This document shows positions 29,685-44,076 of a stretch of DNA of 64,000 bases, piece by piece. The stretch covers positions 110,961 through 174,960 of the forward strand of contig NZ_MPCX01000006.1 of NCBI RefSeq assembly GCF_001874145.1. The letters are read 5' to 3'. The translations under genes and the position numbers were made by a program. Every line of letters begins with the position of its first letter. Position 1 is the stretch's first letter. Source of the DNA: Lacinutrix sp. MedPE-SW. GTDB lineage: Bacteria; Bacteroidota; Bacteroidia; Flavobacteriales; Flavobacteriaceae. Under the pieces are notes generated by a model. The model searched no databases and was not told the origin of the DNA. It saw only the letters and a program-made list of their open reading frames with translations.

Positions 29685-30239
29685 TTAAAATTTATAGCCT
29701 AAAGCAATTTGAAAAACGCTGTTTTTTACGTCTGGATTTTCAGATATGGTTGTAATGCCATAATTGTAACGTGTCTGTACAAACATATGTGTAGTCACAT
29801 CGTATTCAAACCCAAAATTTAAACCAAAATCAAAACTAGAGGCATCGGTTTCTGCATCTGGAGTAGTGTTGTCGCTAAATTCTATTTTATCATTAACTAA
29901 AAACGAAAATTGTGGTCCTGCTTCAACGCTAAATTTATCAAACAAATAATATTTTGCTAAAACAGGAATAGCCAAATAATCTATTTTAACTTTTAATGTA
30001 TTTTCTACTTCACTACCTTGTTTTGTGTACAATAGTTCTGGTTGAATTGAAAGTTTTTCATTTAGTGTAAATTCCGCAAAGCCACCAATATGAAAATTAA
30101 ATAAGTTGTTTCTATCGACATCTCCACCAGTTATATTAGAAATATTTAGACCTCCTTTTATTCCAAAATTTGGATCTTGTGCTTGCATAATGTTTATAAT
30201 GCTAGAGAAAGTAATAATTAAAACGATTAGTTTTTTCAT
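29685..30239 (-). CDS. porin-family outer-membrane beta-barrel protein
   Basis: Signal peptide; GGLNISNITG, YLAIPVLAKYY and C-terminal ALGYKF. Confidence 0.7.
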   Translation of the reverse strand: MKKLIVLIITFSSIINIMQAQDPNFGIKGGLNISNITGGDVDRNNLFNFHIGGFAEFTLNEKLSIQPELLYTKQGSEVENTLKVKIDYLAIPVLAKYYLFDKFSVEAGPQFSFLVNDKIEFSDNTTPDAETDASSFDFGLNFGFEYDVTTHMFVQTRYNYGITTISENPDVKNSVFQIALGYKF

Positions 30240-30428
30240 TTTTAAATTGTTTTAAATTTTAAATAAAGACAGTTAACATATAACTAAATTAATAAAAACT
30301 TTAACTCTGTTATAGATTGAGATTTGTAAATAACAGTGAAAGCGCTCCAATTAATACCGATATTATGGTTATTATAATAACAAAGGTCCATCTTTTCTTG
30401 TCTGTCATATTTTTTGTTTTTAATATTT

Positions 30429-30682
30429 GACAAATGTTTCGCTTATAATTTTATTTAGTATTTAAGCAACTAATTTAGCAAATATAAATAGGAAATACGA
30501 TAGAATTTTAATGATTAGCGACTTTAAAAAATAATAAAAAGATAATAGTTGGTAATGTCTTTTAATATTGCTTAAACAAGACTTTGCTATTACAAAAAGT
30601 GGGTTGTCTTATGATGAAAAATTTGTTTCAAAATTAGCTTAAAATTGCTTTTTTTTTAACTCAGTTCTTTGTTGTAAACAGG
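30429..30682 (-). repeat. two degenerate attC-like repeat copies at the distal end of the array (internal boundary uncertain)
   Basis: 30429-30556 aligns along its length to the 32509-32642 repeat (shared AGCAACTAATTTAGCAAATA) but its central hairpin is disrupted. 30671-30682 GTTGTAAACAGG is the core for cassette 4. Confidence 0.5.
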
Positions 30683-30688
30683 TTTTTC

Positions 30689-31192
30689 TTATTTTATTAT
30701 TCCACTAAAACTTTTCGATTCGCTGTATACATTAATTCCGAAAAGATTCCATTTTAAAATTCCGTTCACCGTATATTCCGCTTGCTTGTTTGGATTCAGA
30801 TTACCGGTTTGAATTGAATTAAATTCCCAAACATAACTGCCAGCAAATCCAGTTAAAACGCTATGACTTGCAGTTGGCATAAATGAATCTCCATCAGCTG
30901 TGTATTTTATTAGTAAAACAATGTCCATTGTTAGATTATCTTCAAGTGTTATTGTTTTCGACATGGAATTATAATTCCCGTTAGTCTTTTCATTTATTAC
31001 AATCATATTGTTTTTCTCTTCTTTATTAGAGGCAGAAATAATTTGAATAATTCCAATAAACATAATTGTAATAGAAACTATTTTAAATTGTGGTCGAAAT
31101 ATTCGTTTTCCAATTGCAATAAAACCAAATATTAAATACAAGAAATAGAAAAAAACAATTCCATTAAGTACTGTCCAAATTAAATATATCAT
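30689..31192 (-). CDS. cassette 4 ORF: membrane-anchored protein of unknown function
   Basis: 167 aa with two N-terminal TM helices and a beta-rich C-terminal domain; bounded by attC-like repeats. Confidence 0.5.
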   Translation of the reverse strand: MIYLIWTVLNGIVFFYFLYLIFGFIAIGKRIFRPQFKIVSITIMFIGIIQIISASNKEEKNNMIVINEKTNGNYNSMSKTITLEDNLTMDIVLLIKYTADGDSFMPTASHSVLTGFAGSYVWEFNSIQTGNLNPNKQAEYTVNGILKWNLFGINVYSESKSFSGIIK

Positions 31193-31210
31193 AAGTTTTT
31201 GTGTTTCAAA

Positions 31211-31348
31211 CCTTGTTTATAACGGTCTTGTATATGAAAAGTAGCGGATTTTAAACACTAATTTTTTAGATTATAACTGACCTTTAAATTATTCATTTTC
31301 TTTTGTTTAAGCGATTAAATCGCTATTTTTCATATATGTTGTTGCCAG
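31211..31348 (-). repeat. attC-like inter-cassette repeat 3 (diverged centre)
   Basis: Ends conserved with repeats 1 and 2 (TAACGGTCTTGTATATGA ... TATATGTTGTTGCCAGTAG). The centre carries a different hairpin, GCGAT-TAA-ATCGC. Confidence 0.6.
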
Positions 31349-31367
31349 TAGTTTTTATTCGAATTTA

Positions 31368-31781
31368 TTAATCAAATGGAACCAAATCAGGTTCTAAAAA
31401 TTTCGTTTTGGCTTTATCAGAATTGTAAATGTCAAATCCATAATGATAAGACATTAAATCCTTAAAATTATTTTTCAGTCGTGGGAATTCCGCTATAAAA
31501 TTCTTAAAATTATCAGATTTTGATTTGCGCATAAAATGATAAACTGCTTTTATTGCTGCCAAAGTTAAAGTCACATTGTATTTGTCTTTCGCTCCCACAA
31601 ATTCCACAAAGTTTTTCAATCCGATTTGAATATTTTTTTCAGCTTGTTTGATTCCGTATTTTTTGATGTTAATCCACGCCAATCTCAAGTGAGCTTCGTG
31701 AGTAAAGTGAGATGGGTTTAATTTGCAATTAATAAACTCTTTTTCAAAGACAGAATCAGAAAGTTCAAAATGTTTTTCCAT
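31368..31781 (-). CDS. cassette 3 ORF: small soluble protein of unknown function
   Basis: 137-aa helical ORF bounded by attC-like repeats; no motif recognised. Confidence 0.5.
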   Translation of the reverse strand: MEKHFELSDSVFEKEFINCKLNPSHFTHEAHLRLAWINIKKYGIKQAEKNIQIGLKNFVEFVGAKDKYNVTLTLAAIKAVYHFMRKSKSDNFKNFIAEFPRLKNNFKDLMSYHYGFDIYNSDKAKTKFLEPDLVPFD

Positions 31782-31817
31782 AAAATATATTTTTCAGGTT
31801 TGATTTTGTTCAAATTA

Positions 31818-31950
31818 CTGCCAACGTGTTTGTGTAAGATTAGTTGCGTGTTTAAGTATTAAAGTTAGCAAATAAATCATAACTAGAAAATCCGCAAGGA
31901 TTTTAAGAAGTAGACGAGAACAAGCAATTACTTATAGCCATTGTTGTGGT
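31818..31950 (-). repeat. attC-like inter-cassette repeat 2
   Basis: About three-quarters identical by eye to 32509-32642 over the full length. Terminal cores are CTGCCAAC and GTTGTGG; central hairpin AAAATCC-GCAA-GGATTTT. Confidence 0.7.
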
Positions 31951-32465
31951 TAGTTTTTTATTCGTTCAAATTCATAATTGCTAATTCCTCCATAATCTCC
32001 TGCCATAAAAATAAACCAAGCTCCATTTTTATATCCACGAGTTAAGTTCAGATTTCCGTTTTTATTATTTCCCAAAATTGTTTTCCTTTCACGATGAAAA
32101 AATAGAGCAGGAATGGGAACTAAAATCATTTTTTTCTTAATTGAGAAATAATTATCTACAATTTCCCCATCAAATAACATGCTTTTTGTAATCGAATCAT
32201 TTTCGATTAAACTTGCTTTTAATTCCGTATTACTTATCAGTTCAACTTTTACAAATGAGTTTTTAGTGGCTGCTGTTGTGTCTCCTTTAAAAGTTTTATT
32301 ATCAGCAAGAATATTCCAAAGCCCAGTTTTACCATTATCTCCAATTTTGTTGCGGTAAACTCCATTTATATTTTCAGCCGAAAACTCAGTTGATTTATTT
32401 TCACTTTCGGCAATCAATTTCTTTGTTGAAAAGCAACTCGTCAGAGTCAGTGAAATAATTAGCAA
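31950..32465 (-). CDS. cassette 2 ORF: putative lipoprotein, unknown function
   Basis: Lipobox LTLTSC. The annotated TTG start truncates an upstream in-frame signal-peptide-like stretch (see findings). Confidence 0.5.
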   Translation of the reverse strand: MLIISLTLTSCFSTKKLIAESENKSTEFSAENINGVYRNKIGDNGKTGLWNILADNKTFKGDTTAATKNSFVKVELISNTELKASLIENDSITKSMLFDGEIVDNYFSIKKKMILVPIPALFFHRERKTILGNNKNGNLNLTRGYKNGAWFIFMAGDYGGISNYEFERIKN

Positions 32466-32508
32466 TATTAATTTTAATGTTTTCAGAATGTTCTTTTTTT
32501 TTAATTAA

Positions 32509-32642
32509 CCACAACGTGTTTGTGTATGATTTCGTTGCGTGTTTGAGCAACTAATTTAGCAAATACAGACCGAATAGAAAATCCGCGAGGATTTTCGTAA
32601 GTAGGCGAGTACTAGCCATTAATTTTATACGTTGTTGTACGT
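32509..32642 (-). repeat. attC-like inter-cassette repeat 1
   Basis: Starts 7 nt after the stop of the 474-aa ORF. Terminal cores CCACAACG and CGTTGTTGTACGT are partly inverted; perfect hairpin GAAAATCC-GCGA-GGATTTTC at 32577-32596. Confidence 0.7.
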
Positions 32643-32648
32643 AGTTTT

Positions 32649-34073
32649 TTAATAATCGAAATTATATTCTTTAATTAATTCTTCCCGTGATTTGGCTCCT
32701 GCAATCCATTTTCTAATGCTAATTACGTGCTTTTTCGCATTTTTTATATTAATGTCTACAATTTCATCATATTGCGTATCTAAATCTAAATGTTTTATTG
32801 AATTTAGTTCACTTGGAAATGTATAGAAAGGCATCCAGTCTTCTTCAGTCAAAACTTTAATTGGATTAATTTTTGACATTGAATTTAATTCATTAAAGTA
32901 TTTTCCATTTATTTTTTTTGCGGTTACATCAACATCAAGGAATGAAAATAGTTTATGAAAGAAAAAAGATTCACCTATAAATAATTCTTTTAAATCTTCT
33001 ATTTCATATAATGTAGGACAAGAGTTTTTTTCATTTCCTAAATTATTATAATCAATAAATTGTGTGCTGAATTTTGGTATGCAAATAACATCTAAATGTT
33101 CATAAATGGCTTCAATTGGATTATTCCCATAAAAGGTGGAAATATGTTTTGATATGAGTTTTTTTGACAAGGTACTTTTAAATGCAAAAATACCTTTAAA
33201 GAAAGGTGTTGAGCTCATACCTTTTTCTGTAATCATTTCAATACCTTCAAGTGATTCTTTTAGTGTTTTAGCATTGAGTGTAGATTTTATTTCAATAACA
33301 GCAATAACTGATTCTTTTTTCACAACTACTAAATCATCATCTCTGAAAGTTGGTATATAGTTATGTTGGTCATAAATAATTATATCAATTTGCTTACTGA
33401 TTCCTTCTATGAAACCAGTAGCTATGTGGAATTTTTTAGGAATATATTTTGATAAAACAGAAGTAAACAATTTTTCTCTGTAATTACCTACTGTTTGACC
33501 GTGACCAATTACATAATCAATACGATTACTTTGGCTTCTAATTTCATCTGAAATTGATGATAAATATCGTTTTTTGTTTTCGAATTCTTCAAGTTCTTTA
33601 GATAGTGTAATATACTCTCCTGATTTTAATTTTTCAAATTTGAATTTATCAGACCCAACTATATTTATTTTGATAAAAGCTTCTGCAATATCTTTTGTAA
33701 CGTTTAATTTTTTTTGAATGACTTTAATACAGTCTTTAATTTTTAATCGGCGTTTGTCTGATTCATAAATATGATTTATAACTAAATGCCAATTATTTAA
33801 TTTTTTTTGGATTTCTAAATGTTCTTTTTTTTGGTAAGTCTTATATGTGTTGAATAATAGAAATGGCTTAACTTCTATCTCGAAATCTTCAATCTTATAT
33901 TTTTTAAGTCCATTTTCATTTGTTGAATTTTCATTTGAAATCCATAAAATTTCGACGTCATCTTTGTAAATTTTTATTACTTGACCAAATGCTGTTTCTA
34001 TGTAATCGTCATTTAGATTAACGAATAAATGTCTATTGTTAAATGCGTAATTTAAAAACTTTTTGACTTCCAT
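32649..34073 (-). CDS. cassette 1 ORF: 474-aa protein with PD-(D/E)xK-like (DUF6602-like) nuclease core
   Basis: HGQTVGNYRE...SKQIDIIIYD...ESVIAVIEIKS gives a D...E-x-K arrangement with flanking hydrophobic strands; N- and C-terminal regions are unassigned. Confidence 0.55.
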   Translation of the reverse strand: MEVKKFLNYAFNNRHLFVNLNDDYIETAFGQVIKIYKDDVEILWISNENSTNENGLKKYKIEDFEIEVKPFLLFNTYKTYQKKEHLEIQKKLNNWHLVINHIYESDKRRLKIKDCIKVIQKKLNVTKDIAEAFIKINIVGSDKFKFEKLKSGEYITLSKELEEFENKKRYLSSISDEIRSQSNRIDYVIGHGQTVGNYREKLFTSVLSKYIPKKFHIATGFIEGISKQIDIIIYDQHNYIPTFRDDDLVVVKKESVIAVIEIKSTLNAKTLKESLEGIEMITEKGMSSTPFFKGIFAFKSTLSKKLISKHISTFYGNNPIEAIYEHLDVICIPKFSTQFIDYNNLGNEKNSCPTLYEIEDLKELFIGESFFFHKLFSFLDVDVTAKKINGKYFNELNSMSKINPIKVLTEEDWMPFYTFPSELNSIKHLDLDTQYDEIVDINIKNAKKHVISIRKWIAGAKSREELIKEYNFDY

Positions 34074-34099
34074 TTTTGAAATTTCAATTTTTATATATG

Positions 34100-34200
34100 A
34101 TTTGCTCTAAATTACGTACAACTATTATATATACCAAACATAATCATTTTGTACCGGTTAGCAAACTAATTTGTAGGAATATACCAACTTTTGTTAAAGT
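34100..34200 (-). other. attI-like junction region (core GTTGTACGT on minus strand at 34122..34114)
   Basis: The 10-nt TACGTACAAC here is repeated as its reverse complement at the distal end of cassette 1 (32634-32643). Also shares AGCAA(A)CTAATTT with the attC-like repeats. Confidence 0.55.
34135..34165 (-). promoter_or_regulatory. candidate cassette promoter (Pc-like): TTTG-N19-TATGTTTG on minus strand
   Basis: Minus-strand TTTG (34165-34162), 19-nt spacer, TATGTTTG (34142-34135). The predicted start lies just upstream of the cassette junction core. Confidence 0.5.
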
Positions 34201-34218
34201 TTGTATATATTTGATTTT

Positions 34219-35058
34219 ATGGCAGATATCGCAACTTTTTTAGACTTTCAGAAGCTTTTAAAAATTAAAAGATATAGTGAAAATAGTATAAACACTTATT
34301 TGGGTTTAATAAAATCGTTTCATAAATATGTTGGTTTTCAAATAGATTTAGAAAGCCTTGAAAACAAACAATTACTTGCTATTATTATACAAGTTGTTCA
34401 AGATAAAAACCTCGCTTATACTACTCACAAACAATTATGTGCAGCATTAAAACTTTTTTATAAAGAAATGTACGGTAGAGATATAGATTTTTCACCGGTT
34501 TATCCCACAAGGCGTCCAAGTCCCTTACCAAATATTATTTCTACTAAAGAGGTTAAGACTATTTTAGAAAGTCATAATAATATTAAACATAAAACTATGC
34601 TTACAGCCATTTATGCGTTGGGTTTAAGAAGCGGCGAATTAATTAATATTAAAATTGAAGATATAAATAGTGATAGAAATCAAATTTTTATTCGCTCTGG
34701 TAAAGGTAGAAAGGATCGCGTTTTACCATTGCCTAATTCTCTAAGATTTTTATTTAGAGAGTATTACTTACAATATAGACCTAAAAACTATTTGTTTTGT
34801 GGTAGAAATGGTGATAAATATGCTCCAGAAAGCTTACGCAAAGTGTTTAAAATGGCCGTATTTAAAGCTGGAATAAATAAACATATTACATTACATAGTT
34901 TGCGCCATGCGTATGCCACACATTTAATGGATAGAGGTACAGATGTTAGAATTATAAAAGAGTTACTTGGTCACAGTTCTATTAAAACCACACTTATTTA
35001 TACACATGTGACACAAAAAACTTTAGAAAACATACCAAGTCCAATAGATTTTCTTTAA
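34219..35058 (+). CDS. tyrosine site-specific recombinase, IntI-like but Xer-length
   Basis: R..(GKGRKDR)..HSLRHAYATH..LLGHSSIKTTLIYTHV catalytic set and C-terminal SPID tail. ATG at 34219 preferred over the ORF-track TTG at 34201. Confidence 0.85.
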   Translation: MADIATFLDFQKLLKIKRYSENSINTYLGLIKSFHKYVGFQIDLESLENKQLLAIIIQVVQDKNLAYTTHKQLCAALKLFYKEMYGRDIDFSPVYPTRRPSPLPNIISTKEVKTILESHNNIKHKTMLTAIYALGLRSGELINIKIEDINSDRNQIFIRSGKGRKDRVLPLPNSLRFLFREYYLQYRPKNYLFCGRNGDKYAPESLRKVFKMAVFKAGINKHITLHSLRHAYATHLMDRGTDVRIIKELLGHSSIKTTLIYTHVTQKTLENIPSPIDFL

Positions 35059-40069: not shown

Positions 40070-40279
40070 GGTTACTGCCTACATTAATTATTTTTTTGAT
40101 AAACTCAACGTTAATTCTTTAAAAAGGGTGAGTTTAAGTTGTAAAAGCGTGCTGCTAATGGTGTATTTCTGAATTCAGTTTCAGTTACCATTCGGGCAGA
40201 TACTTGATCAGCTTGTTAACCCTAAACTTGTTTTTAAGGAGTTTATACAAAACCAAAATTAGTGTAGGCTTTTTTTTTG
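40070..40279 (+). ncRNA. structured rod-like small RNA, 6S-like candidate
   Basis: The 5' arm (40077-40150) pairs with the 3' arm (40205-40269) in consecutive helices: GCCTACATTAATT/AATTAGTGTAGGC, ATAAACTC/GAGTTTAT, CTTTAAAAA/TTTTTAAGG and AGTTTA/TAAACT. An apical stem AATGGT/ACCATT follows, and the element ends in a T9 run. Confidence 0.5.
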
Positions 40280-43179: not shown

Positions 43180-44076
43180 TTATTGTCTTGGATGAAACGT
43201 TTGCATAACCTCTTTTAAGTGGCTTTTATCCACGTGCATATAAATTTCTGTTGTGGTAATGCTTTCGTGACCAAGCATAAGTTGTATGGCTCTTAAATCT
43301 GCTCCATTTTCTAATAAGTGCGTGGCAAATGAATGACGAAATGTATGAGGTGAGATTGTTTTACCTAAATTAATTTTAGTAGCTAAATCTTTAACTATAG
43401 TAAAAATCATAGCTCTTGTAAGCTGCTTTCCTCGTCGGTTTAAAAAAAGAGTGTCTTTAAATTCACTAGCAATAACCATGTGATTTCTAACTTCGTTTCT
43501 ATAAATATTTATATATTTTTGGGTAGCAGGAACAATAGGTACAAACCTTTGTTTATCTCCTTTACCAGTTACTTTAATAAAACCTTCGTCGAAAAATAAA
43601 TCTGAAATTTTTAAATGCGTCAATTCGCTTACACGTAAACCACAACCATATAACACTTCAAGAATGCAACGGTTTCTCTCGCCTTGTGGTTTACTTAAAT
43701 CTACAGCATTAATAAGGCTATTAATTTCTACTTCGCTTAAAGTATCTGGAAGTTTTCTCCCAATTTTTGGTGCGTCAATAGTATCTAAAGGATTATCGGT
43801 TCTATAATCTTCAAAAACTAAAAAATTAAAAAAACCTTTTAAACCAGATATTAATCGTGATTGAGAACGTGCATTTACGGTTTTAGATACACTATATATA
43901 AACTCTTGTAATGTTTGTTTATCTATAGCTATTGGCGAAACAGATATATTGTTTTCTTCAAGATATCGTATTAATTTTTTTATATCAAAGCTATAATTAT
44001 CAATAGAGTTAATAGATAATCCTCTTTCAATTTTTAAGTATAATGTATAATCCTGTAAAGCTTGTTTCCATACCAT
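43180..44076 (-). CDS. xerD: site-specific tyrosine recombinase XerD
   Basis: 298 aa; GLRVSE, GKGDKQR, HTFRHSFATHLL and LGHESITTTEIYMHV. Confidence 0.8.
   Translation of the reverse strand: MVWKQALQDYTLYLKIERGLSINSIDNYSFDIKKLIRYLEENNISVSPIAIDKQTLQEFIYSVSKTVNARSQSRLISGLKGFFNFLVFEDYRTDNPLDTIDAPKIGRKLPDTLSEVEINSLINAVDLSKPQGERNRCILEVLYGCGLRVSELTHLKISDLFFDEGFIKVTGKGDKQRFVPIVPATQKYINIYRNEVRNHMVIASEFKDTLFLNRRGKQLTRAMIFTIVKDLATKINLGKTISPHTFRHSFATHLLENGADLRAIQLMLGHESITTTEIYMHVDKSHLKEVMQTFHPRQ

Follow-up and report, generated by a model that had tools for sequence, protein, structure and literature searches.

The 64,000-nt stretch of DNA analysed here (the window; positions 110,961 to 174,960 of contig NZ_MPCX01000006.1 of Lacinutrix sp. 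MedPE-SW, Flavobacteriaceae) carries a tyrosine recombinase gene and, divergent from it, a short array of co-oriented open reading frames (ORFs) separated by repeats. These intergenic repeats are about 130-250 nt long, start at the stop codon with AAAAAC-n7-AAC and end in …ACACGTT, and the GC content of the array is 27.2%, compared with 30.1% for the window. Judged from sequence comparison, the gene most probably encodes the site-specific recombinase of an integron-type cassette platform that occurs across Bacteroidota and belongs to a lineage other than IntI. The locus consists of the following features.

34219..35058, plus strand: cassette-array tyrosine recombinase, 279 amino acids (aa); the ORF is closed by a stop codon, and an alternative start codon, TTG, lies upstream at 34201
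34113..34188, minus strand: attI-like site in the divergent intergenic region, beside the recombinase gene
34179-34188: direct repeat GTTGGTATAT of the attI-like site, preceding the simple site
34120-34138: simple site TTTGGTATATATAATAGTT of the attI-like site, containing the crossover GTT (34120-34122)
34113-34119: the first cassette's 7 nt, GTACGTA, directly after the crossover GTT
32513..34119, minus strand: cassette 1, with ORF 32649..34073 (474 aa) and site A (32513..32643); flanks GTT-GTACGTA … TACGTAC-AAC, 7/7 complementary
31823..32512, minus strand: cassette 2, with ORF 31950..32465 (171 aa) and site B (31823..31952); flanks GTT-GTGGTTA … TAACCAC-AAC, 7/7
31221..31822, minus strand: cassette 3, with ORF 31368..31781 (137 aa) and site C (31221..31350); flanks GTT-GGCAGTA … TACTGGC-AAC, 6/7
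30432..31220, minus strand: cassette 4, with ORF 30689..31192 (predicted membrane protein, 167 aa) and site D (30432..30680); flanks GTT-ATAAACA … TGTTTAC-AAC, 6/7
30240..30431, minus strand: array tail, with a 33-codon ORF (30306..30407) and no closing site
29685..30239: chromosomal gene for an outer-membrane beta-barrel protein, after the array tail
43180..44076, minus strand: XerD

Residues R137, K162, H226, R229, H252 and Y261 of the recombinase are invariant across an alignment of 13 family members, and they make up the complete tyrosine-recombinase catalytic set R-K-H-R-H-Y, one of the criteria for IntI, which the initial annotation had already recognized. The additional domain of IntI is an insertion of about 35-40 aa between the KDR strand and HxLRH, and it is held to permit the recombination of folded single-stranded attC sites. 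The predicted absence of this domain from the window recombinase is confirmed: KDR (165-167) is separated from H226 by 58 residues, compared with 100 in IntI1, and the insertion is missing both in a MAFFT alignment and in the phmmer match to VchIntIA (PDB 2a3v), which is broken into two parts and leaves chain residues 180-219 unaligned.

Among profile hidden Markov models (HMMs), the best match is XerA_Arch of NCBIfam (203 bits, cutoff 220), followed by the IntI model TIGR02249 (186.2 bits, cutoff 265). The latter matches in two stretches, as does the second IntI model, NF011946 (123.8 bits, cutoff 435), and the scores against the XerD and XerC models are likewise below cutoff (169.8 bits against 329.6 for TIGR02225 and 162.4 bits against 335 for TIGR02224). 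The closest sequence among solved structures is archaeal XerA (4a8e, E 7.6e-38; also 5hxy), and a Foldseek search with an AlphaFold model (pLDDT 81.8), the structural comparison proposed by the initial annotation, returned VchIntIA (E 2.4e-15) and XerA (E 3.8e-15) as the top matches. The four stretches of IntI1 that the initial annotation had quoted as resembling the recombinase are correct, the IntI1 sequence used being 100% identical to annotated intI1, and the shared patches do exist; they are not specific to IntI, however, but are general to Xer-like recombinases, with archaeal XerA matching equally well or better. XerD at 43180..44076 is the sole other tyrosine recombinase in the window and passes TIGR02225 (331.1 bits against 329.6), in agreement with its earlier designation as a canonical XerD and with the view of the array-associated enzyme as an additional, dedicated recombinase.

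That view is also upheld by a distance-based neighbour-joining tree (56 sequences, 274 columns, 100 bootstraps), in which the array-associated recombinases of Bacteroidota form a clade of their own (94%), composed of a short form (86%) and a long form (85%) and separate from the IntI clade (100%) and the XerC/D/A clade (95%). IntI is represented in the tree by IntI1, three close relatives and VchIntIA, a thin sample of its diversity, because the final homology search gave only sequences near IntI1. The sister group of the array-associated clade (65%) consists of gammaproteobacterial recombinases of about 285 aa and about 33% identity (L059-L077, for example L064 9968-11816 and L073 9959-11969), which also lack the IntI insertion and are each followed by a transposase of the IS91 family (Y2 HUH, rolling-circle). 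On account of these two properties they were rejected as IntI references. One gammaproteobacterial genome carries two identical copies of the IS91-linked recombinase.

A total of 2815 relatives of the window recombinase were found at E <= 1e-20, mostly of 276-279 aa and from Flavobacteriaceae and Cytophagales; in public annotations, relatives are named XerD or integrase. The closest is the recombinase of Lacinutrix venerupis (84% identity), and a search for other strains with an identical recombinase gave, apart from the source metagenome scaffold, just a short contig. With an iterated nhmmer profile built on the window repeats, 103 site copies were detected in 30 sources from Flavobacteriia, Cytophagia and Bacteroidia, beside orthologous recombinases and in every case on the recombinase-proximal side; the survey of orthologues suggested by the initial annotation thus finds them consistently adjacent to repeat-bounded ORF arrays. 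In Flavobacteriia and Cytophagia the sites are always upstream of the recombinase gene and on the opposite strand. In two Bacteroidales metagenome-assembled genomes (MAGs; L047 and L048) they lie downstream of the recombinase gene and on the same strand, and the array recombinases of these MAGs are about 380 aa long, with an N-terminal extension of about 100 aa; that of L047 is 42% identical to the window recombinase.

The design of attI is conserved as well. One or two direct repeats followed by TATAYA, 5-6 nt and GTT are found at more than 25 loci, about 95-110 nt from the recombinase start, and in co-directional loci attI lies directly behind the recombinase stop codon. In a comparison of L. 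venerupis (L001 9910-10840) with the window (34128-35058), only attI and the gene are in common; the downstream flank is unrelated, which places the platform at a different chromosomal locus in L. venerupis. In many assemblies of isolates and of MAGs, the sequence breaks off 36-250 bp before the recombinase start, at attI or just past it (L002, L009, L010, L011, L015, L016, L024, L035, L036 and L087), which points to repeats or a heterogeneous population at the first cassette.

The boundaries of the cassettes are defined by a relation between neighbouring sites, in which the 7 nt after the GTT of one site are the reverse complement of the 7 nt before the AAC of the next. Of 68 consecutive site pairs, 46 are complementary at 6/7 positions or more (mean 5.19), compared with 2.7% of random pairs (mean 2.28), and for the two ends of a single site the mean is 2.24. 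The core consensus of the sites is Y(98%)-AAC … GTT-R(86%). All 95 cassette ORFs of at least 60 aa are co-oriented, and the median cassette interval and ORF length are 824 nt and 214 aa, respectively.

Three observations place the crossover at GTT. In L. mariniflava (L003), the attI-proximal cassette recurs 9 kb away with 90.9% identity over 494 nt, and the identity begins immediately after one GTT and stops at the next. The mobilisable plasmids NZ_CP092416 of Flagellimonas marinaquae and pSMS7 of Arenibacter share 10,905 nt at 99.99% identity; their divergence begins exactly behind attI …CCAGTAGTT, from which point the cassettes differ. Finally, the synteny of the window with two Lacinutrix genomes extends from 44096 to about 34100-34125 and ends at attI, past which only the repeats match. 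An attI-proximal gene is also common to Aureitalea (L027 8348-9191) and Croceitalea (L029 8248-9093), with 96% protein and 90.7% DNA identity; the two copies differ in their 7-nt cassette ends, and each of the two recombinases is only about 50% identical to that of the window.

The sites share one plan: a 5′ n6-Y-AAC (R′′), a 3-nt spacer, a 16-nt L′′ arm, a centre of variable sequence and length, the L′ arm, a 6-nt spacer and GTT-R-n6 (R′). AAC and GTT form an R box of 3 bp, which is joined to the stem by the unequal spacers of 3 and 6 nt, and the whole site is about 130 nt long, sometimes about 200-270 nt. Profile columns 20-35 pair with columns 128-113, and one of the pairs occurs as TA in 36 sites, AT in 27, GC in 21 and CG in 7. 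Among 53 distinct arm sequences, 85.3% of the positions in the 16-bp stem are standard pairs, 12 pairs change on both sides, and the covariation score is 0.384, compared with 0.086 for shuffled arms (reached in 0 of 500 shuffles); stem structures shifted by 1-3 columns are 23-38% paired. The consensus stem consists of 16 contiguous pairs with no bulge and contains no conserved extrahelical base, and the central AAAATCC…GGATTTT hairpin of the sites was not resolved in the profile alignment.

The pairing is also asymmetric between the strands. At two positions of the stem, the coding strand has A·C (in 88 and 94 of 95 sites, respectively), which is equivalent to G·T wobbles on the bottom strand, and the non-Watson-Crick pairs of the coding strand comprise 126 A·C and 1 G·T, or 25 and 1 if the two fixed positions are left out. 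At this ratio the bottom strand is 97.7% paired, and it is on this strand that the fold is maintained. RNAalifold gave -21.3 for the bottom strand and -9.1 for the top strand, the DNA fold of the bottom strand is the more stable one in 55 of 68 sites, and 15-16 of the 16 stem pairs are kept in 76 of 81 sites. Site C of the window has 16/16 pairs and folds as a long hairpin. Because folding signals of single sequences are weak, the argument for a fold rests on covariation; this covariation and the strand asymmetry together suggest that the folded bottom strand would be the substrate of the recombinase. The initial annotation had expected site recognition to differ from that of classical IntI, and the sites are in keeping with this: the plan of attC is retained, and two G·T wobbles are present instead of conserved extrahelical bases.

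Cassette movement probably starts with recombination at or beside the GTT of two successive sites, by which a cassette would be excised in circular form. Circularisation would bring the 7 nt of the two cassette ends together as complementary strands, completing the R box, and recombination between the circle and attI, whose direct repeats would bind the recombinase, would then insert the cassette beside the recombinase gene. The recombinase would recognize the site as a hairpin folded from the bottom strand, the one opposite the ORFs. The two fixed G·T wobbles may mark the recombinogenic strand, in place of the extrahelical bases that are read by the extra domain of classical IntI.

The cargo of the arrays is as varied as that of chromosomal integrons. 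The 96 cassette proteins are heterogeneous and match 85 Pfam families, including catalase, beta-lactamases, DJ-1, Mrr-type and type IV restriction enzymes, Gp49 toxins, PIN, Fic, OLD/Gabija-like ATPases, cation efflux proteins, erythromycin esterase and S41 peptidases. With general Pfam profiles, no immunity-protein family appears among the 25 families that occur most often in these cassettes. The arrays are lower in GC than their flanks. In the window, the product of cassette 1 has a DUF6602 / PD-(D/E)xK NucC-like nuclease domain, and family searches with the products of cassettes 2, 3 and 4 gave no match.

Antibiotic resistance genes are found inside the same boundaries on plasmids. The two attI-proximal cassettes of the F. 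marinaquae plasmid NZ_CP092416 (L082 7880-9915) hold erm(F) and a gene of the DHFR family. Seven further plasmid records contain the 1293-nt erm(F) unit with identical ends; they are from Sphingobacterium, Myroides, Bacteroides, Parabacteroides, Riemerella and an uncultured bacterium. In plasmid pMA84474 of Myroides albus (L084 700-9300), a 301-aa recombinase of the array-associated clade, followed by an IS91 transposase, faces an array of resistance cassettes with the following flank matches.

blaOXA-347 cassette: 7/7
erm(F) cassette: 6/7
ere(D) cassette: 7/7
blaMYO-1 cassette: 5/7, with a canonical site (E 1.6e-22)
aadS cassette: 7/7

The erm(F) and ere(D) genes are inverted inside their own plasmid cassettes. 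One paper states that IntegronFinder detects no integron in genomes with resistance genes of this kind. As these genes lie within the same cassette boundaries, surveillance based on IntI and attC may miss a route of cassette exchange in Bacteroidota.

A second, GC-rich type of site was also observed, which has the order GTT, 7 nt, about 21 nt, 7 nt′, AAY, GTGCGGGCGGC…GCCGCCCGCAC and ATT and follows an ORF-less mini-cassette. In several genera, such mini-cassettes are inserted at attI as well as at numerous junctions (L039 8130-8300 and 9700-9890; L003 ~6490 and ~4910; L006 ~9800; L009, L037, L044 and L045). This site type is absent from the window and has no match in Rfam. An interpretation of the GC-rich sequences, which start with GTGCG, as attC-targeting group II introns was rejected, since none were found with Rfam; an ORF-less mini-cassette with a second type of palindromic site is the better interpretation. 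The GC-rich mini-cassette may be a parasitic or regulatory element.

Several observations count against the interpretation of the locus as a working integron-type platform with folded sites. Sites A and B of the window have 13/16 and 12/16 stem pairs, among the worst of 81 sites, their minimum-energy folds bypass the long stem, and the single-sequence DNA folds of the window sites are weak (z -1.3 to -2.6). The terminal site D is degenerate, with its GTT core now TTT, and is undetected by the full site model. The bottom-strand signal would also be compatible with an antisense RNA, and the sequences resolve the crossover to (C)GTT, short of the exact cleavage position. A BLASTP comparison between arrays found only 3 shared cassette proteins in the sample, and turnover is thus deduced from few cases. 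The deeper order of the neighbour-joining tree is weak (47%) and does not settle whether the array-associated clade is nearer to IntI or to Xer. The window's own array may be a decaying relic that is poorly active.

Some of these points are accounted for if the family moves cassettes and the window array has become a set of fixed accessory genes beside an inactive recombination system, a possibility that is to be taken seriously even though we think it rather unlikely. Only four cassettes make up the array, the core GTT of site D is gone, and sites A and B are chimeric, their 5′ and 3′ stem arms being of different sequence types, the pattern predicted for a deletion of intervening cassettes by homologous recombination between two sites at their conserved centres. 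Against such inactivity, the recombinase ORF is intact with all catalytic residues conserved, attI is intact, site C has a perfect stem, and the flanks of the four cassettes match at 7/7, 7/7, 6/7 and 6/7. A platform of the same kind could also recombine double-stranded core sites at the GTT junctions, as Xer does at dif and in the pdif modules of Acinetobacter plasmids, with the palindrome serving as a terminator, a promoter or protein-binding arms. A simple Xer-like enzyme would then not have to recognize a folded attC without the IntI domain, attI is necessarily used as a duplex in any case, and the weakness of single-sequence folds in AT-rich DNA would be of no consequence. This arrangement is nevertheless improbable: the arms covary freely among the sites of one recombinase within one array, which points to pairing rather than read-out of sequence, the 126:1 asymmetry of A·C over G·T is unexplained for duplex DNA, and the R boxes of the same site are non-complementary in the array and become complementary only in the circularised cassette.

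Inversion of the cassette bodies by a shufflon-like invertase of phase variation, with the inverted 10-bp flanks of the ORFs as its targets, would make use of the inverted repeats GTT+7 nt … 7 nt′+AAC and would agree with the inverted orientation of erm(F) and ere(D) in the plasmid cassettes. It is very improbable in view of the single orientation of 95/95 chromosomal cassette ORFs, and it can yield neither a duplicated cassette on the attI side nor different cassettes on identical plasmid backbones. As for a housekeeping Xer protein or an integrase of a prophage or island that stands beside unrelated repeats by chance, Pfam detects only generic Phage_integrase (8.4e-38) and N-terminal SAM-like core-binding domains in the 279-aa protein, and the public names of its relatives, XerD or integrase, are compatible with such an origin. 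We regard this explanation as scarcely tenable: the scores are below the XerC and XerD cutoffs with a true XerD in the same window, chance is already refuted by the linkage of gene and repeats in 30 sources of three classes, and among the neighbouring genes examined there is neither a phage gene nor an IS91 transposase (Y2 HUH). The gene downstream of the recombinase encodes a TonB-dependent-receptor-like protein on the opposite strand. About 5 kb downstream of the recombinase, a 6S-Flavo RNA (RF01685, 97.9 bits) is present at 40103-40244 on the plus strand, and it has a syntenic counterpart in L. mariniflava (L003 15982-16123).

The integron-type interpretation can be extended to a broader proposal, for which the chances appear to us about even: Bacteroidota would possess a second, separate integron lineage, in which a plain Xer-like recombinase, lacking the domain regarded as the hallmark of integron integrases, captures and shuffles cassettes by acting on attC-like hairpins of the folded bottom strand, and fixed G·T wobbles rather than extrahelical bases mark that strand. 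This lineage would cover rAID-1 of gut Bacteroidales, the chromosomal arrays of marine Flavobacteriia and Cytophagia, and the versions on mobilisable plasmids and linked to IS91, the last two as an unrecognized vehicle of erm(F), blaOXA-347, ere(D), aadS and blaMYO-1 that is missed by standard integron finders. To our knowledge, classical integrons are rare or absent in Bacteroidota. If the proposal is correct, the integron strategy of cassette capture is run here by a simpler enzyme, a natural experiment on the minimal needs of recombination at hairpin sites, and a mechanistic basis is provided for arrays of the rAID type. The five resistance genes, found on plasmids of Flavobacteriaceae and of the Bacteroides group, are enclosed by boundaries like those of the chromosomal cassettes.

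In common with integrons, the platform has a recombinase gene divergent from an attI with accessory direct repeats, and co-oriented, mostly single-ORF cassettes that are each closed by an imperfect palindrome. The palindrome has the same order of R′′ (…YAAC), L′′, variable centre, L′ and R′ (GTTR…) with an unpaired spacer, the crossover is at GTT, the cassette ends are complementary only once circularised, and the fold is kept on the bottom strand. The cargo is mixed in both, including defence, toxin-antitoxin and resistance genes, and both have chromosomal and plasmid versions. In contrast to IntI, the window recombinase lacks the insertion, scores below the IntI HMM cutoffs and falls outside the IntI clade. 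The present sites have two fixed G·T wobbles rather than conserved extrahelical bases, 7 nt of the R box, instead of 4, are specific to the cassette, and the sequence of the site is conserved across bacterial classes.

XerA, XerC and XerD resemble the window recombinase in their simple two-domain tyrosine recombinase fold, whereas the palindromic sites of about 130 nt are unlike the 28-bp dif-like sites of these enzymes and of pdif modules; the housekeeping XerC and XerD are further set apart by the model cutoffs and by the true XerD that is present in addition. Recombinases associated with IS91/ISCR elements, often annotated as xerD, form the sister clade and are likewise without the IntI insertion, but no IS91 transposase accompanies the window gene.

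The rAID-1 loci of Bacteroidales consist of an XerD-like recombinase and co-directional low-GC immunity genes, with intergenic repeats described by the authors as "reminiscent of integrons" (Ross et al., 2019, bioRxiv 10.1101/471110; PMC12247911), and they are defined by a recombinase at least 44% identical to B. fragilis BF9343_RS08045 with two or more co-directional genes downstream of it (Ross et al., 2019, bioRxiv 10.1101/471110). No B. fragilis name is among the best 120 homologue matches of the window recombinase. The low-GC array with conserved intergenic repeats is common to rAID-1 and the window, and the Bacteroidales MAG loci (L047 and L048), which have the layout of rAID-1, carry homologous sites and the same GTT/AAC cassette logic. 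The window array differs in being upstream and divergent rather than downstream and co-directional, its recombinase is of the short form of about 278 aa without the N-terminal extension of about 100 aa, and its host is a marine, Lacinutrix-like member of the Flavobacteriaceae. The rAID-1 preprints of 2019 and 2025 give intergenic motifs, not a folded-site architecture or a crossover point, and a literature search, which for rAID-1 covered these two preprints, found no description of either or of the version in Flavobacteriia. Of the systems described so far, rAID-1 is the closest, and the window locus is a variant of it with a divergent layout, a short recombinase and cargo that is probably other than immunity genes.

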